A stretch of DNA of 64,000 bases from Candidatus Woesearchaeota archaeon (GCA_017608625.1 JAFCFN010000006.1:295-64294); one strand, 5' to 3'; counted from the stretch's first letter, positions 16,697 to 64,000 are shown. Notes: generated by a model from the sequence alone, not told the origin. Numbers and translations are program-made.

Positions 16697-16786
16697 CGGG
16701 CCTGAGGAGATTCGAACTCCTGACCTTTACCTATCTTCTATTTAAAGTAGGAGGGTACTGCTCTATCCAGACTGAGCTACAGGCCC
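16697..16786 (-). tRNA. tRNA-Arg(CCU) with 15-nt canonical anticodon-loop intron
   Basis: rc gives GGGCCTG-TA-GCTCAGTCTGGATAGAGC-A-GTACC-CTCCTA[intron]A-GGTAA-AGGTC-AGGAGTTCGAATCTCCT-CAGGCCC-G. Confidence 0.7.
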
Positions 16787-17993: not shown

Positions 17994-18078
17994 AGCCTCA
18001 GGAGGGATTTGAACCCTCGACCTGCTGATTTCTAGCAGAGCTACAAGTCAGCTGCTCTGGCCACTGAGCTACTGAGGC
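17994..18078 (-). tRNA. tRNA-Thr(UGU) with ~12-nt anticodon-loop intron
   Basis: rc gives GCCTCAG-TA-GCTCAGTGGCCAGAGC-A-GCTGA-CTTGTA[GCTCTGCTAGAA]A-TCAGC-AGGTC-GAGGGTTCAAATCCCTC-CTGAGGC-T. Confidence 0.75.
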
Positions 18079-19959: not shown

Positions 19960-21234
19960 TCATTTACATATTCTGCTTAATTCGTCATAACTTATTCCAA
20001 TATTCTTTTTATAAAAATCATTATATAATTCCGTTATTAAATCTAAATTTTTAACTACATCCAATTTACATTGGGCATCTATGTCAATGCCCTTCTGGTG
20101 CAGTTTTGTGTTAATTTTGTTTTCAAGTATGGTTTTGGCTGAGCTGTGAGGTCTTGTTTTTCCTTCAATGAACTCCCTTAGCCGCCTTGCACCAGCACTG
20201 CCCCAGGAATCCCACAATCTTTGAGGATCATCACCAAATATCAACGATCCTAAGAAGGCACCATATTCTCTTTGTATTTCGTTATACTTTATTTTCATAT
20301 TAAGACTATCCTGAATAAAGTGTTCAAGTTCATGTTGAATAGTATTCTTCATTTCTTTATCTTCCATAACTGCCACAAATAATTGTTTAGTAGAAAGATG
20401 ATAAAATCCCCCAATTCCAGATTCAGGAGATTTATTTATTATATAGACTGGGAGAACATTATTTATTTGAAATATAGAATTAACATTAGCAACAAAATCT
20501 TTGTCTTTGTATTTTACAATTAAGAAACCTTTATCTTTTAATAACTTATACTCAGTACCTTCTTCATCTTGGTGGTTTGTCAGAATTGCCCTGAGATAAG
20601 ATTCTGGATTTTGTTCATAAAATACATCAAATTTGGGATTTATTTTTATTTTTGCTAATTTAACTAATTTCTTTGCACTTCCTTTTACTTTATTTAAAAC
20701 ATTATATATGTTTCTCTCTATCTTGTCTCTTTTTTTAGAGGATTTGTATTTTTTTACCAAATGAACATTTTTTCTTCCTTTGATTAATTGGGGCAATAAA
20801 AGTGCTGTTTCAACAGAATCTGCTCTTGTGAATATTTTAATGTATTCAAAAGGATTTTCTGATTGCGAAGCTTTATTTACAAATTTATTAACGAGCTTTT
20901 TCTGAGAATCGATTTTTTCTAAAATGTTATCCAATCCACTACAACTTAGTTCTAAATATACAAAATCACTATCATATTCCATATCTTTGAGAAATAAATC
21001 TAAAGTTAAGTCAAAGAATCTTTTTTGACCCATGCCTTTTAAGTTTAATTTTTTGGTTGAACTATAAAGGTTAAAGTATGTTTCTTCAAGCTTTTTGTCA
21101 ATCTTTGATTTATCTCTCTGGTTTATCTTCAGACTTTTTTCTTTACCTTTGAAGAAATTCCCCATATTTTTGTCTTTTTCAATCCATTTGTAAAAATTAT
21201 TTTTGAATTCTTTAACTTTGTTTGTTGAGCTCAT
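19960..21234 (-). CDS. hypothetical protein with HExxH motif
   Basis: 424 aa, 'IQHELEHFIQ' putative zinc-metallopeptidase motif; otherwise unrecognised. Confidence 0.35.
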   Translation of the reverse strand: MSSTNKVKEFKNNFYKWIEKDKNMGNFFKGKEKSLKINQRDKSKIDKKLEETYFNLYSSTKKLNLKGMGQKRFFDLTLDLFLKDMEYDSDFVYLELSCSGLDNILEKIDSQKKLVNKFVNKASQSENPFEYIKIFTRADSVETALLLPQLIKGRKNVHLVKKYKSSKKRDKIERNIYNVLNKVKGSAKKLVKLAKIKINPKFDVFYEQNPESYLRAILTNHQDEEGTEYKLLKDKGFLIVKYKDKDFVANVNSIFQINNVLPVYIINKSPESGIGGFYHLSTKQLFVAVMEDKEMKNTIQHELEHFIQDSLNMKIKYNEIQREYGAFLGSLIFGDDPQRLWDSWGSAGARRLREFIEGKTRPHSSAKTILENKINTKLHQKGIDIDAQCKLDVVKNLDLITELYNDFYKKNIGISYDELSRICK

Positions 21235-23144: not shown

Positions 23145-23858
23145 TTATATAATTTTCTCTATTTGTTCAGCCTCTTTATATTTGGTTAAAAACAAGTCCT
23201 TCATTAGTTTAATAAAAGACTTGTCTTTAATTAATAAAGTGGTATTTGATTTTATTAGGGCCAACATCATCACACTATCATCAATTATACTCATTGCAAT
23301 TCCCTCATTTTCTATTTTTTTAATGTTTTTATGAATCTCTAACCATTTTTTGATATTGTTCTCTGTTTCTCTGTCAAATCTAACCAATTCTTTTATTATA
23401 ACTCCTTTTTTCAAACTCTCTCTTTTTTCTCTTACCCAAACTGGCTGATACTCTGCAGTGTATTTAATGTTATACTCTGATTTTTTCGGTTTTGGCAGCT
23501 CTCTTTCTATTTTATAAAATGCTTTTTTTCCTCTCGTAATTATAACTGGCTCTTCTTCTTTGCTTGCATAAAGTTTTTCCAGTTTTTTGATATCCTCTTT
23601 TATTTTATCTAACTCTGCTTTTTTGGCTTCAACTAGCTTCATTAAATTTTCAGGATCAGAAGCAATGAATTTTTTTGTTTTTTCTGGAATTATTTTGACC
23701 AAGCCCTTTCTTTCTAAAGAAGTCAATACTTCGTAGATTCTCCCATAAGAAACATCAGCTTCTGCTGCTATCTGGGATGCTGTTGCTTTGACTAGTTTGA
23801 TTAATGCTTCATATGCTTTTGCTTCATATTCTGTTAAACCCAATTCTCTTAAATTCAT
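23145..23858 (-). CDS. TrmB-family transcriptional regulator
   Basis: N-terminal wHTH 'LTEYEAKAYEALIKL...SYGRIYEVLTSLERKGLV'. Confidence 0.7.
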   Translation of the reverse strand: MNLRELGLTEYEAKAYEALIKLVKATASQIAAEADVSYGRIYEVLTSLERKGLVKIIPEKTKKFIASDPENLMKLVEAKKAELDKIKEDIKKLEKLYASKEEEPVIITRGKKAFYKIERELPKPKKSEYNIKYTAEYQPVWVREKRESLKKGVIIKELVRFDRETENNIKKWLEIHKNIKKIENEGIAMSIIDDSVMMLALIKSNTTLLIKDKSFIKLMKDLFLTKYKEAEQIEKII

Positions 23859-23933: not shown

Positions 23934-25097
23934 TTAAACACTCCTCTTCACAATCAAACTAGTTTTAATGATCTCTTTAGCTTTCTCCAAATCTTTTTTC
24001 TCAACTTTGTTTCTTAACTCTAATCTTGCAGCTGCTTTTGCCAATCTAATTAAACCAATAATCATTCTAGGAGAAACCTCAACTAAGAAATTATTCTCCT
24101 TTTCTTTAAGTTCTTTGCTAAATTCTACAACATCTTTTTGAAAATCTCTTGGAAACTCTACTTTTATTTGTTGAGCATGATCAATATATTCTTTTATGAA
24201 ATTTAAGTCCATCTTATTTACTTTTTTTCTGTCTTGTTCAACAATCTTTTTTGCTATTTCTGAGAATTGAGTTACACCAGGTGTTTTGATTAAGAACACT
24301 AAATGAAACCTTGTTAACAAGGCAGGGTCAAAAGGTATCTGTTTTTTTAGATCCTCAATTCTTACTCCAATGAACTTATCTTTTTTTGGATTAGCAGAAG
24401 CAAGAACATTTACTTTTGCTTCAAATGTATAGTGCTTTCCTCCTTTATTATATGATATAAAACCTTTTTCCATTGCGTTATACAAACTTGCTCTGTCTTC
24501 TTGCTTCATCAGATTTAACTCATCTATTACAGCAATTCCATTATTTGCCATCGGTAATAAACCAGGGATTACATCATTCCCTTTTACTGTAACAGCTAAG
24601 CCTGCTGAGGATGTTCCTGAGCCTAGACCAAATGAAGAGATAGGAGCTAGATCTGTTACTGATTTTATTATATCTGATTTGCCAATCCCTGGATCTCCTA
24701 ATAGTAAGATATGTAGCTGTTCTGCAAATAACTGCAATAACACTGCTTCTTTTACTGTATCTAAACCAGTTATATTTGGTGCAATTAAGTTTAAAATAGT
24801 TGATCTTGCTTTTTTGCTGAAATCCTCAAAAGCCTTTCTTTTATAATGATAATCTATTGTTTTGTTCATTAAATCAACAAAATCAGCAACTCTTTTGTCC
24901 ATAACAGATAACTCAAGAATAGGAAATATCTCATCATAAACAAGGGTTGTGCCTAATCTTGATTGAGAAAAAGATATACTGCCTTCTTTTAGCAGTTTTT
25001 TAACTTTTTTTGCATCTTCTTTATCTAAGATTTCTTTTATTATTTTGAAATTTGCTCTTTTTGTGCCTAACAAAGGCAATAGTTGTTTCCACCCCAT
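23934..25097 (-). CDS. MCM-family AAA+ ATPase lacking canonical N-terminal domain (mini-MCM)
   Basis: Walker A 'LLLGDPGIGKS', Walker B 'IAVIDELNLM', MCM-specific 'YNAMEKGFISYNKGG...VLASANP', Arg finger 'LLTRF'; only 387 aa. Confidence 0.65.
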   Translation of the reverse strand: MGWKQLLPLLGTKRANFKIIKEILDKEDAKKVKKLLKEGSISFSQSRLGTTLVYDEIFPILELSVMDKRVADFVDLMNKTIDYHYKRKAFEDFSKKARSTILNLIAPNITGLDTVKEAVLLQLFAEQLHILLLGDPGIGKSDIIKSVTDLAPISSFGLGSGTSSAGLAVTVKGNDVIPGLLPMANNGIAVIDELNLMKQEDRASLYNAMEKGFISYNKGGKHYTFEAKVNVLASANPKKDKFIGVRIEDLKKQIPFDPALLTRFHLVFLIKTPGVTQFSEIAKKIVEQDRKKVNKMDLNFIKEYIDHAQQIKVEFPRDFQKDVVEFSKELKEKENNFLVEVSPRMIIGLIRLAKAAARLELRNKVEKKDLEKAKEIIKTSLIVKRSV

Positions 25098-34426: not shown

Positions 34427-37349
<2,923 letters not shown>

Positions 37350-49024: not shown

Positions 49025-49070
49025 TTTATTTTAGTAACTTTTATAAACAATCTTTAATCTAATTCTATTT

Positions 49071-49145
49071 AGCGGGGTGGGGCAGTCTGGAGTGCCCGGA
49101 GGGCCCATAACCCTCAGGTCAGAGGTTCAAATCCTCTCCCCGCTA
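49071..49145 (+). tRNA. initiator tRNA-Met(CAU)
   Basis: AGCGGGG-TG-GGGC-AGTCTGGAGT-GCCC-G-GAGGG-CCCATAA-CCCTC-AGGTC-AGAGG-TTCAAAT-CCTCT-CCCCGCT-A; A1:U72 and three G-C pairs in anticodon stem. Confidence 0.85.
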
Positions 49146-49160
49146 TTTTCCAAAAAAAAG

Positions 49161-50387
49161 GTGAGAAAAATCAAGCTCTATCTAAAACAATTCAAAGGAA
49201 TTGTTCCTGATAAAGATCTTGAAGCACTGGAAAGATATGGTGATGAATTTTTTGATCTGCATGTTCTAAATATTAATTCTACTCATTTAGGCGGAGGTGT
49301 TGCAGAACTTCTTTCAGCCATTGTTCCTTTATTTGATAGAATCGGATTAGAGGCTCAGTGGGAGGTTATGAGTGGGGGAATTGAGTTTTTTAACACAACA
49401 AAATATTTCTACAATGGTTTACAAGGACAAGATATCTCACTTGATCAAAGAATAAAACAAAAATTTAAATCTGTAAACAAGCTCAATGCAGTGAGAATGC
49501 AAGATATTATAAAAAATGCAGACATTGTCATTATTCATGATCATCAACCTGTTGCTATGATTAATTATGTTGAAAAAAAGCAACCCTGGATTTGGAGATG
49601 TCATGCTGATATACATACTCCTGATAGAGATGTATGGAACTTTCTTTTGCCATACATAAATTGTTATGATAAAGTTATTCTTTCAATGGAAAAATACAAG
49701 AAAAAAGGTATAAAACCTGTACAAAATATTGTTCATCCTTCAATTGATCCGACTAATGAAAAGAACATGGATATAAGTGAAAAACAGATCAACAAAATGC
49801 TCTCAAAACACGGCATTGATAGGGATAGTAAACCAATTATTTCTCAAATTTCTAGATTTGATAAATGGAAGGATCCAATAGGTGTGATCAAAACATTTAG
49901 AAAAGTTAGAGAAAAAATTAAATGCAAACTTGTTTTGTTGGGAGAGACTGCTTTAGATGACCCTGAGGGACCTGATATGTACAATTATATTATGAAAGAA
50001 ACTGCGGATGATCCTGATATTTATGTTATTTCAGAGCACAGCCCATTATTAGTTAATGTTCTACAAAGAGCATCTTCTGTTGTTCTGCAAAAAAGTTTGA
50101 AAGAGGGTTTTGCTTTAACTGTTGCTGAAGCACTTTGGAAAGGAACTCCTGTTGTAGGAACACCTCATGGAGGAATTCCTTTGCAAATTATTGACGGTAA
50201 GACAGGTTATTTGGCAGAAACAATTGATGAAACAGCTAAAAGAGTAATCAAACTGCTTGAAAATAGAAAGTTAGCAGCAAAACTTGGCAAACAGGGAAAA
50301 GAGCATATTAGAAAACATTTCTTAATAACAAGACATGCTTTGGATTATTTGAAGATTTTTAAAGAGGTGTTAAAGAAAAAGGTTTAA
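49161..50387 (+). CDS. GT4-family glycosyltransferase (trehalose synthase TreT-like)
   Basis: 'VLLGETALDDPEG', 'EGFALTVAEALWKGTPVV' GT4 C-terminal motifs; track start 49077 lies inside tRNA, GTG 49161 proposed. Confidence 0.6.
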   Translation: MRKIKLYLKQFKGIVPDKDLEALERYGDEFFDLHVLNINSTHLGGGVAELLSAIVPLFDRIGLEAQWEVMSGGIEFFNTTKYFYNGLQGQDISLDQRIKQKFKSVNKLNAVRMQDIIKNADIVIIHDHQPVAMINYVEKKQPWIWRCHADIHTPDRDVWNFLLPYINCYDKVILSMEKYKKKGIKPVQNIVHPSIDPTNEKNMDISEKQINKMLSKHGIDRDSKPIISQISRFDKWKDPIGVIKTFRKVREKIKCKLVLLGETALDDPEGPDMYNYIMKETADDPDIYVISEHSPLLVNVLQRASSVVLQKSLKEGFALTVAEALWKGTPVVGTPHGGIPLQIIDGKTGYLAETIDETAKRVIKLLENRKLAAKLGKQGKEHIRKHFLITRHALDYLKIFKEVLKKKV

Positions 50388-55671: not shown

Positions 55672-56268
55672 TTAAGGTACTTCTACATAGATCACTTGAG
55701 GGTCTCCATAATTATCTGGATAACTTTGATAACAAGGAGAAGAAGGATTATTGTGTGGATTACCATCGTCGTAACATATATTAATTACGAAAGAATATAG
55801 GCCTGTTGTTGGTTTTTGTAGGTTAATAAGAATAGCTATCTTTTTGTCTTGATTTGGTCCTAAATCAAACTGCCATTTATTATCATTTAATTCTGTTAGT
55901 GTTGTTGTAATCTCATATTTGTCATTGATACAGACGCTACTATCTGTAGTTCCATTTGCATTATACTTTGTGATACAATCTGCTTTCACAACAAAAGTTT
56001 GTTGATTATCATAAACATTCAACACACCCAAACCAAATACAGCTCCTCCTTTTTCAATAGTTTTTTTTGTTATTGGAATAATAACTCTTTCTCCTGCAGC
56101 AAGATAGGATTCTATTTGAGCTTCTGTCTGTGCATCTAACTGTGCTTTCATTGTTTCTGCTTTTTTGAGAAATCTATAAGATAAACTAATTCCAACACTA
56201 AGAACAGCTAGAGCAAGAATAAGAATAACAATAAAGCTAATGCTTATCATGAATGCTTTTCTGCTCAT
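55672..56268 (-). CDS. archaeal type IV pilin-like protein (class III signal peptide)
   Basis: 'MSRKAFMISISFIVILILALAVL' then beta-rich domain. Confidence 0.4.
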   Translation of the reverse strand: MSRKAFMISISFIVILILALAVLSVGISLSYRFLKKAETMKAQLDAQTEAQIESYLAAGERVIIPITKKTIEKGGAVFGLGVLNVYDNQQTFVVKADCITKYNANGTTDSSVCINDKYEITTTLTELNDNKWQFDLGPNQDKKIAILINLQKPTTGLYSFVINICYDDGNPHNNPSSPCYQSYPDNYGDPQVIYVEVP

Positions 56269-56392
56269 TTTTAAGCTGCTACAAGAAGATCTGAGTTATT
56301 TTTCAACTCTTTTCTTGCTAATTTTCTTGCTGTTCTATTATTTTGTAAAGCTAAATTTATAAAAAGCTTGTACTTATTATCTTCAAAAATAT

Positions 56393-56605
56393 TCATCTTA
56401 AAAACTCATACTCTTTTATAATCAAAATCATGAAGAGCACAAACACTATTGCTCCTGCTAATACTATATAAATTCCTTCTGTAAATTCTCCAGAATAAAG
56501 TTTCCAGAATCCAAAACCACATATAACAATAGCTACCCACAAAAATTTGTCCAAAACTAGCTTCATGATTTCAAATTCTTGAGCTTGAGTTAAGCGTTTT
56601 TTCAT
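56393..56605 (-). CDS. small two-TM membrane protein
   Basis: 70 aa. Confidence 0.25.
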   Translation of the reverse strand: MKKRLTQAQEFEIMKLVLDKFLWVAIVICGFGFWKLYSGEFTEGIYIVLAGAIVFVLFMILIIKEYEFLR

Positions 56606-56615
56606 TTTTTATCTT

Positions 56616-57089
56616 TTATGTTACAATTATTCTGACATCTTCTGATATATCTCCCACAGTTAATGAACAGAGATATTGTCCTTTAGAAATTCCTGAAGGT
56701 ATCTTTACAATTGCTGTCCATTTCATAGGTGTACCTGCTGTTACAGTTTTTTTACTAACTGTAAAATCTGGCGTTATTTCTGTACAATTTAATGAAGGGG
56801 ACACATCTCCTCCCTTGATAGGATAAAATGAAAATTTAATTCCTCTACTATCTCCAGGAGCACCTGTTACTGGCTCTCCTGACAAAGTCAATCTCTCACC
56901 AGGAGTTGCTGTTGTTGGTTCAGGAACTTCTGCTTCCCATTTGGTTAACTCAGTTTCAGCTTTTTTAGCAACCATTCTGATAACTCCTAAACCGACTCCT
57001 AACATTGCTATTGCCATGATTAAAATAACAATTGCATTCATAGAAAGAGCTAAGCTACTTTTTCTTTCTTTTCTCAGCATGAAAAACAC
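56616..57089 (-). CDS. archaeal type IV pilin-like protein
   Basis: 'RKSSLALSMNAIVILIMAIAMLGVGLGVI' N-terminus. Confidence 0.4.
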   Translation of the reverse strand: MFFMLRKERKSSLALSMNAIVILIMAIAMLGVGLGVIRMVAKKAETELTKWEAEVPEPTTATPGERLTLSGEPVTGAPGDSRGIKFSFYPIKGGDVSPSLNCTEITPDFTVSKKTVTAGTPMKWTAIVKIPSGISKGQYLCSLTVGDISEDVRIIVT

Positions 57090-57232: not shown

Positions 57233-57288
57233 TACAGGAGGGGGCTGTGAGCAAACAATATACAGGAGGGGGCTGTGAGCAAACAATA
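57233..57288. repeat. perfect 28-bp tandem duplication (tacaggagggggctgtgagcaaacaata x2)
   Basis: seen in sequence; overlaps predicted start of downstream ORF. Confidence 0.9.
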
Positions 57289-58032
57289 GATGTTCTAGTT
57301 GAGTTTATAAAATCAAATGCATTAGAAAATAACAATGGAAGTCAAAATGAAAATGCATCTGAAAGCATCAATATAACTGATATTTCACATCCAGATCAAA
57401 ACCTAACAATTAATGAAGGAGAAGATTTAGTAATAATTGTGAACTTTTCTAGAGTAACTGATTATAGCTGGATTATTAATAATCAAACAGTTGTATCTGG
57501 AACAGGAGATTCAGCAAGCTATAATTTTAGTGCAGATTTTAGTTCATCTGGCAATTACACTTTAAGATTAATAGCTGGAAATTTAACAAGAGAGTGGAAC
57601 ATTACAGTCAAAGAAGCAGGTGATCTAGTATTTGAGTTTAGAACAGCTGTTCTTGATTATAATACAGAGGCGTATATACCTAATAATACAGTGACAATCA
57701 ACGGAGTAACAAAACAAAACCCTAATCGTTCTTCTCATTACAAAACAATATTCAATGTCAGCTCTGATACTTTAACTGAAACTTGTTATTCAGCTGACAA
57801 TTATTTGCCAGATTGTGATGATGTTTATTTTGATATGAGACTAACAACTTGTACAGCAGGAAGTGATTGTAATTTAGGAACTAATAAAGGGGGCTACACA
57901 ACTAATTGTGTATGGAACAGTGATTGGGGTGATTTTACATGCACAGTTACAAAAGCAGATTACAAATCTGTTTTTATCTATAATCCTAATCAAAATGCTG
58001 TAAAAAGGGTTAATTACTTGGAGAAGAAATAA
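57247..58032 (+). CDS. Asn/Thr-rich putative surface glycoprotein (many NxS/T sequons), start uncertain
   Basis: >15 N-x-S/T sequons, Cys-rich C-terminus; no signal peptide at predicted start. Confidence 0.35.
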   Translation: MSKQYTGGGCEQTIDVLVEFIKSNALENNNGSQNENASESINITDISHPDQNLTINEGEDLVIIVNFSRVTDYSWIINNQTVVSGTGDSASYNFSADFSSSGNYTLRLIAGNLTREWNITVKEAGDLVFEFRTAVLDYNTEAYIPNNTVTINGVTKQNPNRSSHYKTIFNVSSDTLTETCYSADNYLPDCDDVYFDMRLTTCTAGSDCNLGTNKGGYTTNCVWNSDWGDFTCTVTKADYKSVFIYNPNQNAVKRVNYLEKK

Positions 58033-58035
58033 AAG

Positions 58036-58722
58036 ATGATTTATAGAAGATTAGCGCCATATGTTGCAGCTGTTCAGTTGTTTAGTGCTGTGCTCTGTTA
58101 CAGCCAGGATAATAAAAACACAACACATTATTTGCAAACACCAATAAAAGAGAAAGCAGATAATAATCTGAAACAAGGAGTGGCAGATCATTCTCTGCAG
58201 AATTTGGAAGAAAGAGCAATGCCCTTTTTTACAATAAAAGAAAAAGATGCTGACCAGCAACAAATACAAGAAGGAACAATAATTTATACCAAAAAGCCAG
58301 CCATTTTGAAGAAGAAAACCACCTCTTTCTATAACATCTTTCTTTTAGAAAAAGTAGAAACAGATTATTTACAACAAAAACAAGAAAAAACAGATGATTA
58401 TCAGCCAACATTCAAAAAAGAAAAAACAATTTATCCTCAAATGTTACCTAGAAAATTAAAATTAAATCTTAAAAATGTTCAAAAATCTGGACTAGAAAAA
58501 AAGATTGAAACTAATTCTCAAGAAGCTAAAATAAAAACCAAAAAGTTTTATCAAAAATGGTGGTTTTGGACTGGTCTAGGTTTATTAGCAGCAGGGATAT
58601 ATTATTACAATCAAAATAAAGAATCTAAAAAATTAAATGAACCAACAACAAGTTCTGACGATAAGGATGAGGAACAGGATCCAGCGCATGAGTTAAGCTT
58701 AAGATTGAATAAAAGGTTTTAG
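58036..58722 (+). CDS. hypothetical protein with signal peptide and C-terminal TM anchor
   Basis: 'WWFWTGLGLLAAGIYYY' near C-terminus. Confidence 0.3.
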   Translation: MIYRRLAPYVAAVQLFSAVLCYSQDNKNTTHYLQTPIKEKADNNLKQGVADHSLQNLEERAMPFFTIKEKDADQQQIQEGTIIYTKKPAILKKKTTSFYNIFLLEKVETDYLQQKQEKTDDYQPTFKKEKTIYPQMLPRKLKLNLKNVQKSGLEKKIETNSQEAKIKTKKFYQKWWFWTGLGLLAAGIYYYNQNKESKKLNEPTTSSDDKDEEQDPAHELSLRLNKRF

Positions 58723-60419: not shown

Positions 60420-62852
60420 TTAGAGTAGCTCTAACTGTTCTTTTAAAAGCAAGGAATAATCATCTGCTTTAGCTGTTCTATCAATTATCCTACATAAAGC
60501 TTCTTTTTTTTCAGGAACAAGTTTGCCGTTTTCAAAACAAAATGTAGAATAAATGATTTCTCCTAATGATCCTTCTTCAAGTGATCTGCCTGACTTTATT
60601 TTATGACCATAAAACTTATTTATGTATCTTGCTTTATCAAGAATATATTTATCATCAAAGAAATTTTCTTTTGGAGGATTTTCTAATTCTCCTTCATGAT
60701 AAGCTAGAATAGGATGCTCAAAACCCAAGGCATACCCATATCTTATTATATTCCCCTCTCTTAAACCATACAAATTCTTGACTTGTATCCACTCTCTTGA
60801 CTGAGCTTTCGCTGAATAAAAATCTTGTTTTATTTCTTTTTCATAAACTAACTCTTTTTTATCATGTAGGCTGTTTAAGCTTTCATCAATTAACTGAAGC
60901 AGTTTAGATTTATCGTTCTTAAACAAAATTATTTCATATAATTCTTTAATCAATTTTGTTTCTAGTTTTGTTTTGTCTCCTTTGGAACCACTTAAATCAA
61001 TACCTTGCGAGATCAATTGACCATCAATGTTTATTGCAAATCTGGATTTTTCAAGTGAAATTGCTTTTCCATACCCCAAGTTTATTGCTAAATTTTTTTC
61101 TTCTAGTTCTTTTGCATCAATATTTCCTTTTAATAACAAAAATTTATTTGAATAATTAATACAATATTTGTCTTTCAAGAAGTTTTTTATAACTAAAATT
61201 TTTTTTATTATATTATTATTTGCCTTGATTATACTAGTATTATATTCTTCTGGTTTTATTCCATAAAGCCTGCTGAAGATGAAATCTTTTGTCCTTTTCC
61301 AAAAAGGTACATCAAGATGCTTTTCTAGGCCAGTATCTCTTTTCAAGAAATACAAAGCTCTTCTTAAGTAAGCATCCAAAGCTTGTGCAAGGATTATTTT
61401 GTGTTTTTTTGTTGTTGTTTTGAATTCTTTATAAACCTCATCAGCATATGGATCATCTTTTATAGTCTCCAAAAGACCTTCAATAAAGGGAGTTGGATAT
61501 ATCAAACAGCAATTGTGAATTCCTTTTTTTATTTTTATCTTGTTTAATTCAAGCAGTCTTATTTTTTCTTTATTTACATCAAACTTTTTTAGATCTTCCT
61601 TTTCTTGAGGTTGAGGATTAGAGTAAGTATGTAATTTCTTAAATTGTTGTTCCTCATGCAACTGATTGCTTAACTCATTTTTTGCTGTTAAAGCAACTCG
61701 TGAAGGCTTTTGTCTAAACATATAACTAAGCAATAAAAGATCCTTAAGAAATTCGTCACCCAATTTAAAATGCAAAATTGTGTCTTTCACATTATATTCT
61801 GCACATATTTTAGTGTATTTTTGATTAGTCCTAGATAACTGGGCGTATTTTTCTAGTGTTTCATAATCCAAATCTTTCTCTAAATGAGTATTAAAAACAT
61901 AGTTTGCAACTGTTATTAGTTTGTTGTCAGGTGTCCAGAGCCAGTGTTGGGCAAAAGGATATGTATCTATTAATAATTTGCCTCTGCCAAAATCCCATCT
62001 TTTAAAATAAGATGAACCGGCTTCTATTATTGGTTTAGTAAATCCTATACCTGGCAAAAAGTCTTTTTCTAATTCTCTAGCTGTTTTAACATCAAAATTT
62101 GCATTATGGATAAAAGCAAATAAGAAATCATAACTATGCAATATATCCGTCATTGTTTTACCAATATTTTTTACATTATTTATAACTTTTAATTCTATAT
62201 CTCCAAAGTGTGTGTGAACTGTTAGTTTGTCATTTCCCAGATTGTCCTTGCATAACAAATAATTCCCAAATTTTTCATCATTAGTAATTATTGGACATAA
62301 AAAGATCTCTATACTATTATTATTTTTTCTTGTTTCCAAGTCAATAGCAACCTTTTTTTCATCCAACAATTCTTCCAAAGGAACTTTTTTACTATTATCT
62401 TCAAATAAAGAGAAAGGATAATTTACATTCCATCTCAACATTCTTGCTGTATTGTTCCTTTGATCTCTTGTTATAAAGCTTTTTGTTAAGTATTTTTTCA
62501 TAACAGGATTACCAATTGCCCAGAATACAAAGGCTTTTTTCCATTCGTTTTCCATCTTTTGAAGCATTTTATCAGAATAAGTATTAAGATCAAGATTTTC
62601 CATGGCATAAGGCACTTTTTGAATTTTGATTCCTAGCTCCTTTAGATTTGGGTCCTTAACTATCCAAAAATTCTTGTCATGAGGGTTAGATTCAGCAATT
62701 TTACTTATTTCATCTTTCAAAGGTTTCCATGCTTTTGGCCATGTAGGAATAACATGCTCAAACTCTATGCTTTTAGAAAAAGATTTCTTATTTTCTCTTA
62801 AATAAAAAGTAGCTTTGTTTCCTTTAACTTTAACATCCACTATAAAAGCCAT
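60420..62852 (-). CDS. family-B DNA polymerase homolog, apparently inactivated polymerase domain
   Basis: Exo I 'AIDLET', Exo II 'NANFD', Exo III 'YNVKD'; motif A-like 'NCCLIYPT', motif B-like 'FSRLYG', motif C-like 'KGNIDA'. Confidence 0.5.
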   Translation of the reverse strand: MAFIVDVKVKGNKATFYLRENKKSFSKSIEFEHVIPTWPKAWKPLKDEISKIAESNPHDKNFWIVKDPNLKELGIKIQKVPYAMENLDLNTYSDKMLQKMENEWKKAFVFWAIGNPVMKKYLTKSFITRDQRNNTARMLRWNVNYPFSLFEDNSKKVPLEELLDEKKVAIDLETRKNNNSIEIFLCPIITNDEKFGNYLLCKDNLGNDKLTVHTHFGDIELKVINNVKNIGKTMTDILHSYDFLFAFIHNANFDVKTARELEKDFLPGIGFTKPIIEAGSSYFKRWDFGRGKLLIDTYPFAQHWLWTPDNKLITVANYVFNTHLEKDLDYETLEKYAQLSRTNQKYTKICAEYNVKDTILHFKLGDEFLKDLLLLSYMFRQKPSRVALTAKNELSNQLHEEQQFKKLHTYSNPQPQEKEDLKKFDVNKEKIRLLELNKIKIKKGIHNCCLIYPTPFIEGLLETIKDDPYADEVYKEFKTTTKKHKIILAQALDAYLRRALYFLKRDTGLEKHLDVPFWKRTKDFIFSRLYGIKPEEYNTSIIKANNNIIKKILVIKNFLKDKYCINYSNKFLLLKGNIDAKELEEKNLAINLGYGKAISLEKSRFAINIDGQLISQGIDLSGSKGDKTKLETKLIKELYEIILFKNDKSKLLQLIDESLNSLHDKKELVYEKEIKQDFYSAKAQSREWIQVKNLYGLREGNIIRYGYALGFEHPILAYHEGELENPPKENFFDDKYILDKARYINKFYGHKIKSGRSLEEGSLGEIIYSTFCFENGKLVPEKKEALCRIIDRTAKADDYSLLLKEQLELL

Positions 62853-62902
62853 ATTCCTAAAGAAGCAAAACTTATTTAAATAACTATCGTTTAGTAGTAT
62901 CT

Positions 62903-64000
62903 ATGGCATATCCTCAGGCTATTGGTGATACAAGAAGTCTCTATATTGTATTAGAACCCTTGCTTGACAAAATAGATTTTAAAAGATTAAAGATTAATAA
63001 AAAACGAATTTCTAGCTTAGAATCCAAACTTAATGAGGCAATAAAAGAAGCAAAAAATCCTTATTTGAAAGGAAGACTGAAAAAATATTGTTTAAATAAT
63101 AAGGAAATAAAGAATAATCTAAACAAACTAAAAAAATATGATCCTATTATTTTTATAACAGGTGTTTCTTGCAAGCCAGCAAGATATGGAAACATCCCTA
63201 GAAAAATTGCTATTGATCCTGAGGCTGATGAATTCTTTTTGACGGATAAAATTTTAGAAAGAGTCCAACAAATACCTGAAGCTTACGAGAATATTCTGTT
63301 CTGGCCAGTTTCTCCTGTTATGTGGCCATTTATAGTAAGGAATAATAAAATAGAGCACCCTCTTCCAAAGATTATTAAAAAAATAAACAGGGAACAAGAA
63401 AAGAAAGGGAGTACTACTTTTGGAGCTTTGAGCAAGAGTTTGGAGAGCAGATATAACAAAACAAACTACAAATTTTATGAGTCTCTCTTTGATTATAAAA
63501 AAGCTTTGAATTATTTAATAGATTGGAGTCCTCAGTTAAATGAGTTATTTAAAAAATATGAAAAAATAGAGAGGGTTGAAAAGGAAATAAGGGACATCAG
63601 TTATTTGAACAATATTCTGATGAGTTTTGCACTTGGAAACATAATCAAGTTGTTAGAGCCACATAAGGTGTATGGATATTTCATGGAGACTTCTTACTGT
63701 AACAAAATTTTTTCATTGATCCACAAATCTCACAATATAGAGATTAAAGTTTTGGACTGTATGAGAAATGCTCGTTTAAGTCCTTTTGGTGAATGTGATG
63801 ATTCTGCTATAGACATATTAGATGGACTGATAAGAAGTTTGCATCAGAAAAAAGTTGGAAAAAAACTTAAACCGCCAAAAAGAAAGAAAAAAGAAACAAT
63901 CATAAGAATATCTGCTTTAAAATGCCACCATTATCCTTTTTATTTATGTGCAAACCAAAGAAATTGTGATAAAGTAACAATTCCTTGCGCCAAACATCTT
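62903..64000 (+). CDS. hypothetical protein, 3'-partial at window end (not in ORF track)
   Basis: open frame of 366 codons from ATG 62903 to window end; C-terminal Cys/His-rich segment. Confidence 0.35.
   Translation, partial: MAYPQAIGDTRSLYIVLEPLLDKIDFKRLKINKKRISSLESKLNEAIKEAKNPYLKGRLKKYCLNNKEIKNNLNKLKKYDPIIFITGVSCKPARYGNIPRKIAIDPEADEFFLTDKILERVQQIPEAYENILFWPVSPVMWPFIVRNNKIEHPLPKIIKKINREQEKKGSTTFGALSKSLESRYNKTNYKFYESLFDYKKALNYLIDWSPQLNELFKKYEKIERVEKEIRDISYLNNILMSFALGNIIKLLEPHKVYGYFMETSYCNKIFSLIHKSHNIEIKVLDCMRNARLSPFGECDDSAIDILDGLIRSLHQKKVGKKLKPPKRKKKETIIRISALKCHHYPFYLCANQRNCDKVTIPCAKHL

Follow-up and report, generated by a model that had tools for sequence, protein, structure and literature searches.

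The DNA analyzed here is a 64,000-nucleotide stretch of one strand (the window; GCA_017608625.1 JAFCFN010000006.1:295-64294) from a Candidatus Woesearchaeota archaeon. It is ~31% GC, and its gene content is plainly that of an archaeal chromosome: it encodes ribosomal protein L10e, an archaeal-type S-adenosylmethionine (SAM) synthetase, SMC, GyrB, RtcB, Orc1/Cdc6, and an MCM-like AAA+ protein, together with a DHH/RecJ-like protein, RNase HII, S3Ae, and seryl- and histidyl-tRNA synthetases. Near the end of the window, open reading frame (ORF) calling gave an intact ORF of 810 amino acids (aa) with an ATG start on the minus strand (60420-62852, stop codon at 60420-60422), and this gene, which encodes a relative of the family B DNA polymerases (PolBs), is the subject of this report. 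On longer contigs carrying the identical gene, a divergently oriented 685-aa ORF with no Pfam match, here called the partner, begins 50 bp upstream of it. The features of the PolB-like gene are as follows.

60420-62852, minus strand: PolB-like gene, 810 aa, with a full family B polymerase fold and the sequence signature expected of an exonuclease-proficient, polymerase-deficient protein
62373-62852, minus strand: N-terminal domain, about residues 1-160 (boundaries approximate), from the alignment of the structural model to PolBs, which spans the N terminus
61713-62372, minus strand: DEDDy 3'-5' exonuclease domain, about residues 161-380, from the hidden Markov model (HMM) alignment to Pfu 116-378 (114 bits) and from hhalign
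62331-62348, minus strand: Exo I, AIDLET, residues 169-174, with D171 and E173, from column invariance
62091-62105, minus strand: Exo II, NANFD, residues 250-254, with N250 and D254, from column conservation
61782-61796, minus strand: Exo III, YNVKD, residues 353-357, with Y353 and D357, from column invariance
61476-61523, minus strand: putative remnant of the motif A strand and helix, residues 444-459, GIHNCCLIYPTPFIEG, from DSSP analysis of the model and column statistics
61128-61163, minus strand: putative remnant of the motif C beta-hairpin, residues 564-575, CINY-SNKF-LLLK (CINYSNKFLLLK), from DSSP and from spacing back from the KxRF anchor
61038-61049, minus strand: KSRF, residues 602-605, counterpart of the PolB KKRY primer-binding motif, from the HMM alignment to Pfu 592-732
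60423-60977, minus strand: thumb domain, about residues 626-810, from the HMM alignment to the Pfu thumb and high model confidence
60423-60440, minus strand: C-terminal EQLELL, residues 805-810, a Q-x-x-L-[FL] motif that resembles a sliding-clamp (PCNA)-binding peptide

A full-length PolB homolog in DPANN archaea

Searched on its own, the 810-aa protein had zero matches in Pfam, in NCBIfam, or among PDB sequences (phmmer), even at E <= 10; at that threshold no PolB family was reported for it by the Pfam DNA_pol_B_exo1 and DNA_pol_B models or by the NCBIfam PolB models, and its precomputed Pfam field is empty. Single-sequence searches of PADLOC and PHROGs and a tblastn search of GenBank phages likewise gave no match, the single protein as query found no related loci in GTDB genomes or IMG/VR, and a word-indexed homolog search returned only the query itself, to which a search with the family alignment added only four canonical PolBs. 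An exhaustive phmmer search of 1.84 billion representatives, however, found 114 relatives, 76 of them at E <= 1e-10, each representative standing for a cluster at 50% identity. The near-full-length relatives are 22-43% identical to the query over the matched stretches, and most are 700-1000 aa long. An alignment of 93 relatives supplied the family profile and all of the column counts given below, and 115 sequences were used for the regular-expression scans for motifs. Every named member comes from a DPANN archaeon (metagenome-assembled genomes [MAGs] labeled Nanoarchaeota, Woesearchaeota, Nanoarchaeia, or "DPANN group"), and the only name given by any source to these proteins or to their partners is "hypothetical protein."

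The family profile matched the structures of Pfu, KOD, and Tgo PolB with E values of 1e-43 to 1e-33. The match falls into two segments, one covering the exonuclease domain (Pfu 116-378) and the other the KKRY/thumb region (Pfu 592-732), and in the same alignment the conserved P146-F147 lies near Pfu P115-F116. The best profile score was obtained with archaeal B3 PolB (151 bits), compared with 77 bits for Pol delta and 59 bits for Pol II, and the herpesvirus polymerase and Pol epsilon also scored far below archaeal PolB. An AlphaFold2 model of the protein had a predicted local distance difference test (pLDDT) score of 95.5 and a predicted template-modeling (pTM) score of 0.94, and Foldseek matched it to ~50 archaeal PolB structures over ~850 columns (E, 1e-24 to 1e-19; template-modeling [TM] score, 0.45-0.62), with KOD, Tgo, and Pyrococcus abyssi PolB among the full-length matches. 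Pairwise identity within the family is only 17-25% in every domain, and yet all of the domains have been kept, at an occupancy of 0.74-0.95, implying that the fold is under selection. We concluded that the protein is a genuine full-length PolB homolog, closest among solved structures to the B3 type, in agreement with the family assignment made in a first-pass annotation of the sequence.

With the archaeal B3 PolBs (Pfu, KOD, Tgo, 9N, and P. abyssi), the family shares the five-domain fold, Exo I, II, and III, a KKRY-like KxRF motif, and a thumb-base motif that resembles RGLE..RRD. In the query, KSRFA aligned with KKKYA at an hmmalign posterior probability of 9, and QGID...KG (residues 616-625), which follows KSRF, is the counterpart of RGLE..RRD, with G617, D619, K/R624, and G625 conserved. 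It differs from the B3 enzymes in going undetected by Pfam models PF00136 and PF03104 and in having a constant neighbor gene. Six distant members (P0031, P0038, P0054, P0079, P0100, and P0111) are 970-1064 aa long, exceeding the query by 150-250 aa, and the extra sequence in these longer members lies mostly ahead of or within the exonuclease domain.

The exonuclease site

Exo I (AIDLET), Exo II (NANFD), and Exo III (YNVKD) had been read as intact in the first-pass annotation, and we located them at residues 169, 250, and 353, respectively, with their five key residues (D171, E173, D254, Y353, and D357) invariant in all 93 relatives. Around them, N250 is kept in 87 and F/Y253 in 89 of the 93, and N250, D296, and K326 are each conserved in >= 90%. 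When the family was compared with canonical PolBs (P0116-P0119) by using hhalign, the exonuclease domain was the only part that aligned, with a probability of 99%. Invariance of five residues in proteins that are otherwise only 17-25% identical is far beyond chance and is the hallmark of a two-metal exonuclease of the DEDDy type that still functions. The exonuclease site has thus been kept, and the protein is predicted to have 3'-5' exonuclease activity.

This invariance is what makes it unlikely that the protein is simply a noncatalytic scaffold, comparable to the C-terminal half of Pol epsilon, that organizes the replisome or its partner and uses its exonuclease motifs only to bind DNA or metal. 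Scaffold roles have been described for inactivated PolB modules (PMC2669801, PMC7544198), and the conserved partner and possible clamp motif described below would suit such a role. However, the PolB derivatives known to act as scaffolds all lack the exonuclease residues as well, whereas here all five residues persist in 93 of 93 relatives at ~20% identity.

The polymerase site

None of the canonical polymerase motifs (A, B, or C) was matched at the right place in any of the 115 sequences scanned. In the alignment of relatives, no column between residues 358 and 618 is >= 70% acidic, and an hhalign comparison with canonical PolBs restricted to the palm and fingers showed no significant similarity (probability, 0.06). 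In contrast to the archaeal B3 PolBs, the family thus lacks the motif A Asp, the motif B Lys/Asn, and the motif C DTD, its palm and fingers cannot be aligned with theirs by sequence, and its post-motif C helix is shortened. The claim that the catalytic Asp residues of the polymerase are missing was therefore sound, but the positions at which they had been replaced by Asn were a different matter.

Those replacements had been placed in NCCLIYPT (motif A) and KGNIDA (motif C), with FSRLYG taken as a degenerate motif B, and we found these strings at residues 447, 575, and 526, respectively. In ungapped profile scoring, NCCLIYPT reached a z score of 3.2, compared with 3.0 for IFSRLYGI and 2.9 for the next runner-up, both of which are chance matches, and when flanking sequence was included three offsets tied, with all scores negative. 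By sequence, the placements first proposed for motifs A and C do not rise above chance. Three methods gave three positions for motif A: 447 (a low-confidence hhalign alignment and a scan of the core only), 453 (ungapped extension from G444), and 425 (hmmalign). We therefore rejected placement by sequence and used the secondary structure of the model to locate motifs A and C.

DSSP analysis of the model gave a continuous strand at residues 444-453 and a helix from residue 455 (455-459). In PolBs, as seen in the KOD and RB69 structures, the motif A Asp lies at the end of a palm strand, approximately three residues before a helix, which would put the equivalent position at about Y452/P453 and not at N447. 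Extrapolation from the last residues of the HMM alignment (Pfu ~378, query ~424) likewise gives ~451-453. Across the family, column 452 is Y/A/F and column 453 is L/P/F/I; only 3 of 93 members have an acid at 451-454, the structural position of motif A, and just one has acids in both metal-ligand windows. N447 itself lies in the middle of the strand; with the conserved G444 set on the Gly of the B3 "G-L-x-E-N" stretch, N447 falls on the Glu. Its column has the composition D26/N20/E13/Q8.

The motif C hairpin, as delimited by DSSP, consists of a strand at 564-567 (CINY), a turn at 568-571 (SNKF), and a second strand at 572-575 (LLLK). Within it, N566, which is kept in 86 of 93 members, is the best candidate for the counterpart of the first Asp of DTD, and motif C may therefore contain an Asp-to-Asn change after all, although at a residue other than the one first proposed. 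No acid is conserved at the second, metal-binding position (D occurs at column 569 in <= 19 of 93), and the tip of the hairpin is highly variable or gapped across the family. KGNIDA (575-580) falls past the second strand of the hairpin, in a region that is mostly gaps in the family. The residue-level alignments originally given for motifs A and C were thus probably shifted. The identification of FSRLYG as a degenerate motif B fared better in that it is topologically plausible, since the string forms the end of the helix preceding the pre-motif C helix and its Y/F-G is semiconserved, but the Lys and Asn positions are not conserved and the identification is unproven.

The elements that are conserved in the polymerase half of the protein (G444, Y452, P455, K/R485, N566, G593, G595, and S599, together with KxRF and QG(I/L)D..(K/R)(K/R)G..E) are structural and duplex binding rather than catalytic. 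The catalytic carboxylates have been lost, and from this pattern and the modeled positions we infer that the polymerase is inactive.

The alternative that the protein is still a DNA polymerase, with a rearranged, noncanonical active site, for which PolB2/Dpo2 and the primer-independent PolBs (piPolBs) are precedents, seems to us quite unlikely. The piPolBs lack the first Asp of motif C. The entire palm, fingers, and thumb fold has been kept in the family, K/R485 on a finger helix is conserved in 82 of 93 members, and column 447 is D or E in 39 of 93. PolB2, moreover, carries out translesion synthesis despite a prediction that it would be inactive (PMC7544198, PMC8764526). Nevertheless, PolB2 and piPolBs have both retained the Asp of motif A and the distal Asp of motif C, and the query is acidic at neither position; moreover, the near absence of members with acids in both windows, the lack of a conserved acidic column on the palm strands, the unconserved motif B Lys and Asn, and the variable or gapped hairpin tip all argue against a surviving active site.

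The divergent partner gene

The remaining features of the locus are the region between the two genes and the partner itself, which runs off the end of the window.

62853-62902, no strand assigned: divergent intergenic region, 50 bp, with a central palindromic TATA-like element, TTTAAATA, at 62875-62882
62903-64000, plus strand: first 366 codons of the partner gene, from translation; the full 685 aa are encoded by L001:7893-9950

The partner adjoins the PolB-like gene in 11 of 11 independent loci (L001, L003, L005, L006, L007, L009, L011, L014, L017, L018, and L019), which were reached from nine family members that are 23-43% identical to the query and, separately, from the partner. The other flanking genes vary from locus to locus and include genes for ribosomal proteins, an RNA polymerase operon, and genes for aminoacyl-tRNA synthetases and SAM synthetase. 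Across these loci the partner is 685-897 aa long; it is divided between two genes in L007 and L011, and in L018 it is codirectional with the PolB-like gene. An alignment of partners used as a query found only 4 metagenome loci and, in IMG/VR, no related locus. At the 3' side of the PolB-like gene in one Woesearchaeota MAG (L019:3637-6033, minus strand), a convergent gene for a 798-aa protein with no Pfam match overlaps the 3' end of the PolB-like gene.

In the window, TTTAAATA lies ~24-26 nt from both start codons. The orthologous intergenic regions are 50-61 bp long (n = 6; L001, L003, L009, L011, L017, and L019), and inspection by eye revealed a central A/T-rich, near-palindromic element in every one, although a TATA regular expression matched only three of the six (L001, L003, and L017). 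This arrangement suggests a putative bidirectional promoter shared by two leaderless genes.

The partner consists of an N-terminal region of ~450 aa without an assigned family and, beyond the end of the window, a C-terminal Cas4/RecB-like PD-(D/E)xK nuclease domain. Invariant in 10 of 10 diverse partners are G476, H480, Y510, E512, D529, D542-x-K544, and Q554...Y558, and a 1+3 Cys pattern like that of the iron-sulfur (Fe-S) clusters of Cas4 is present in 9 of the 10, including the partner from the organism of the window, and absent in L003. An AlphaFold2 model of the partner had a pLDDT of 75 overall and of 80-95 over most of the nuclease domain. Searched against the PDB with Foldseek, it matched Cas4 SSO0001 (4ic1), MGME1 (5zyw), and RecE with a probability of ~1 and E values of 1e-3 to 1e-4, and it also matched ACE1 and type I-C Cas4; Cas4, MGME1, ACE1, and RecE were among the top matches. 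A search of BFVD returned 16 viral PD-(D/E)xK or Cas4-like exonucleases at E < 1e-3. HMM matches were weak, namely, PADLOC Cas4 (E = 0.0025) and a phage exonuclease, both within residues 507-587, and Pfam PDDEXK_1, which matched one of four partners tested at a below-threshold E of 0.028; the partner profile had no match among PDB sequences.

In its motifs (G..H, Y.E, GH.D, D.K, and Q...Y), and in a 1+3 Cys pattern that may be an Fe-S signature, the partner resembles nucleases of the Cas4/MGME1/RecE/AddB type, but it is three to four times larger than Cas4, has the extra N-terminal region, and has no CRISPR association. MGME1 works with Pol gamma in mitochondria, and that combination of a nuclease with a polymerase-borne 3'-5' exonuclease recalls the module described here.

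The N-terminal region of the partner contains several strongly conserved motifs (xDPF, PVSPxxFPF, GFGSLEKSL, YxFxExxF, LRN, and GExDxSA) but belongs to no detectable family. Foldseek gave weak matches to SMUG1-type uracil-DNA glycosylases (probability, 0.5-0.6; E, 0.1-0.6), with no HMM support, and the pLDDT there is low, around the DPF motif; the SMUG1-like match is a lead only.

A PolB gene beside a Cas4-like gene raises the alternative that the two are cargo of a mobile element, virus, or defense system, for example, a PolB and nuclease derived from a casposon or provirus. Archaeal viruses and mobile elements often carry PolB and Cas4-like genes, viral exonucleases are the best BFVD matches of the partner, and solo Cas4 proteins in DPANN archaea have been suggested to function in defense (PMC5704561). 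The pair is flanked, however, by housekeeping genes (ribosomal protein, RNA polymerase, tRNA synthetase, and SAM synthetase genes) that differ between loci, no integrase or terminal repeats were seen, PADLOC gave no match for the PolB-like protein, and searches of IMG/VR and of GenBank phages, within the limits of their sensitivity, found no relatives. We consider this origin very unlikely.

C-terminal peptides and the conformation of the model

In at least 35 of the 93 relatives, the very last residues of the protein are Q-x-x-[LIMV]-[FLYWM], for the most part QLxLF, compared with a chance expectation of ~1% by a rough estimate, and the query ends in EQLELL. The PCNA-interacting peptide (PIP box) of archaeal PolBs is of the QxxLxxWL type, and the family has QLxLF in its place. 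The QLxL(F/L) tail is a candidate clamp-binding peptide that, judged from its sequence, probably tethers the protein to PCNA. Among the partners, C-terminal extensions in L005 (L005:5298-7574, minus strand), L006, and L014 carry QLNLF or KILKLF-like peptides. Both the PolB-like protein and its partner may therefore carry clamp-binding peptides.

Among PolB structures, the model is closest to those of P. abyssi PolB in "edition mode" and of Tgo in complex with uracil or hypoxanthine (TM score, 0.57-0.59), whereas polymerizing and apo PolB structures match it with TM scores of 0.44-0.56. This does no more than suggest an editing-like arrangement of domains.

Proposed function

We favor, with fair though not strong confidence, the interpretation that the protein is an exonuclease-only PolB derivative, probably tethered to PCNA, that forms a two-nuclease module with its Cas4-like partner. 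It would have arisen from an archaeal B3-type PolB by loss of the polymerase carboxylates and the deoxynucleoside triphosphate-binding residues, with the whole architecture kept. The thumb and the primer-binding elements (KxRF and QG(I/L)D..(K/R)(K/R)G) would still grip the DNA duplex in the manner of a PolB, but with no polymerase site to receive it, the 3' end would always be handed to the exonuclease site, so that the protein would be in a constitutive editing mode, held on PCNA by the C-terminal QLxL(F/L) peptide. It would act jointly with the product of the divergent gene, which is predicted to be a Cas4/MGME1-like, Fe-S-type PD-(D/E)xK nuclease. Nucleases of this kind typically act on 5' single-stranded DNA ends or flaps. 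Between them, the two nucleases could then trim both strands, 3' and 5', where DNA has primer termini, flaps, gaps, or ends, and possible roles include extrinsic proofreading or 3'-end cleaning, combined with flap or end processing, in replication or repair.

Several observations weigh against this interpretation. The residue equivalences in the palm were derived from the secondary structure of the model and from spacing relative to the anchored flanks, without superposition. The acids present at column 447 in 39 of the members, together with an acid somewhere in the hairpin (566-571) in 36 of 93, mean that a noncanonical polymerase site could persist in a subset of the family. PolB2 is a precedent for caution, as it was once predicted to be dead and is a weak translesion polymerase (PMC7544198, PMC8764526). 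Fewer than half of the members have the proposed clamp-binding motif, which is short and is as similar to the bacterial beta-clamp motif as to the archaeal PIP box. Finally, the N-terminal ~450 residues of the partner are unexplained, and the model of the partner is of moderate quality (pLDDT, 75).

A bolder version of the proposal, which we put forward only tentatively and think more likely to be wrong than right, is that the ancestral B3 replicative polymerase of the Nanoarchaeota/Woesearchaeota, rather than disappearing, was turned into a dedicated PCNA-tethered 3'-5' exonuclease when synthesis passed to other polymerases (e.g., a B7 PolB) and that it now forms an obligate machine with the Cas4-like Fe-S nuclease, serving as a hitherto unrecognized core replication/repair factor (trans-proofreader plus flap/end processor) of these reduced genomes. 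A bacterial-type B7 PolB has been published for Woesearchaeota and Pacearchaeota. In the window, there is no other ORF big enough to encode a PolB or the DP2 subunit of PolD, the large ORFs being those for SMC, GyrB, and a transglutaminase-like protein.

Comparison with PolB2 and other polymerases

The protein had also been assigned to the known class of inactivated archaeal PolB paralogs, which is PolB2/Dpo2 (PMC2527604, PMC4104785, PMC7544198). PolB2 is without an Exo III and without a conserved Exo I, its distal motif C Asp and its D(K/R) motif have been preserved (PMC7544198, PMC2527604), and it shares its operon with arCOG07300 (~90 aa) and an inactivated RadA (PMC4104785). Like PolB2/Dpo2 and the bacterial G2 group, the family described here consists of paralogs of archaeal PolB with noncanonical polymerase motifs, encoded in a conserved gene module. 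Its pattern is nevertheless the reverse of that in PolB2, in that the exonuclease is invariant and the polymerase motifs are gone; there is no Asp in the hairpin of the query; and the neighbor is a 685- to 897-aa Cas4-like protein, sometimes split, in all 11 loci, with no conserved small helical protein or RadA nearby. Whereas PolB2 is an active translesion extender, we read this family as exonuclease only. Membership in PolB2 is thus hardly credible, the resemblance ending with archaeal PolB homology and substituted polymerase motifs and all three defining features of that class (exonuclease motifs, hairpin Asp, and neighbor gene) refuting it. The survey that defined groups B1 to B10 gathered PolBs by their polymerase domain (PMC7544198), and a family in which that domain is eroded would have been overlooked as a consequence.

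PolB folds that have lost one catalytic activity while keeping another role are familiar from Pol alpha, Pol zeta, and the C-terminal module of Pol epsilon. In the literature surveyed, however, inactivated PolBs are missing either the exonuclease, as in Pol alpha, Pol zeta, and PolB2, or, in the C-terminal half of Pol epsilon, both activities, and the present family appears to be the reverse case, in which only the polymerase has been lost, the proofreader strictly kept, and the full scaffold retained. The same logic of a scaffold that serves an exonuclease is seen in prokaryotic PolX proteins with an inactivated polymerase and an active PHP 3'-5' exonuclease (PMC12926913), and a similar functional logic holds for Trypanosoma brucei POLIB, a family A enzyme in which exonuclease activity is dominant (PMC9731263). 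These proteins belong to families X and A, the exonuclease of PolX has a PHP fold, and neither has a conserved Cas4-like partner.

Neither the family nor its partner is functionally named in the databases queried or described in the literature searched, and a search with incomplete coverage for either a PolB that serves only as an exonuclease or a module of PolB and Cas4 in DPANN archaea found no description of either. With the large Cas4-like nuclease to which it is strictly linked, the family makes up a two-gene module that sits among genes for core information processing in DPANN archaea, a group in which replication and repair are not well understood. Should the exonuclease-only interpretation prove true, the family would provide a natural PolB in constitutive editing mode and a candidate extrinsic proofreader, and it would also provide a testable function for a "solo Cas4-like" protein, a type that is over-represented in small-genome archaea.

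Other features of the window

Several other genes in the window are unusual. The MCM-like protein (23934-25097, minus strand; 387 aa) has the MCM P-loop and lid domains but no room for the N-terminal OB/zinc domain, which is not supplied by any ORF upstream of the gene; a gene for a TrmB-family regulator adjoins it (23145-23858). At 34433-37349 on the plus strand, the gene immediately after that for a bacterial-type GyrB is not gyrA but one for a DHH/DHHA1 (RecJ/GAN-like) protein; we did not identify gyrA among the ORFs scanned in the window. A 424-aa ORF (19960-21234, minus strand) has no significant Pfam match, the only hit being a subthreshold one to DUF3920 (E = 0.004).

Four further ORFs of 157-261 aa, at 57247-58722 on the plus strand and at 55672-57089 on the minus strand, have no Pfam match. 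The plus-strand pair (261 and 228 aa) lies just upstream of the L10e gene, and contigs L001 and L002 have the 228-aa ORF as well. Its companion (57247-58032) is called as 197 aa on L001, and on L002 the region lies within an 852-aa product that is cut by the contig end.

Among the tRNA genes, ARAGORN predicted an 85-nt tRNA at 17994-18078 (minus strand), with an undetermined four-base anticodon, "tgta" (Rfam tRNA score, 64.5 bits), and a 90-nt tRNA-Gly(CCC) at 16697-16786 (minus strand); both are longer than usual and may contain introns. A tRNA-Met gene (49070-49146, plus strand) overlaps the called GTG start of an ORF for a trehalose-synthase-like glycosyltransferase (49077-50387, plus strand), implying that the true start of the glycosyltransferase lies further downstream.

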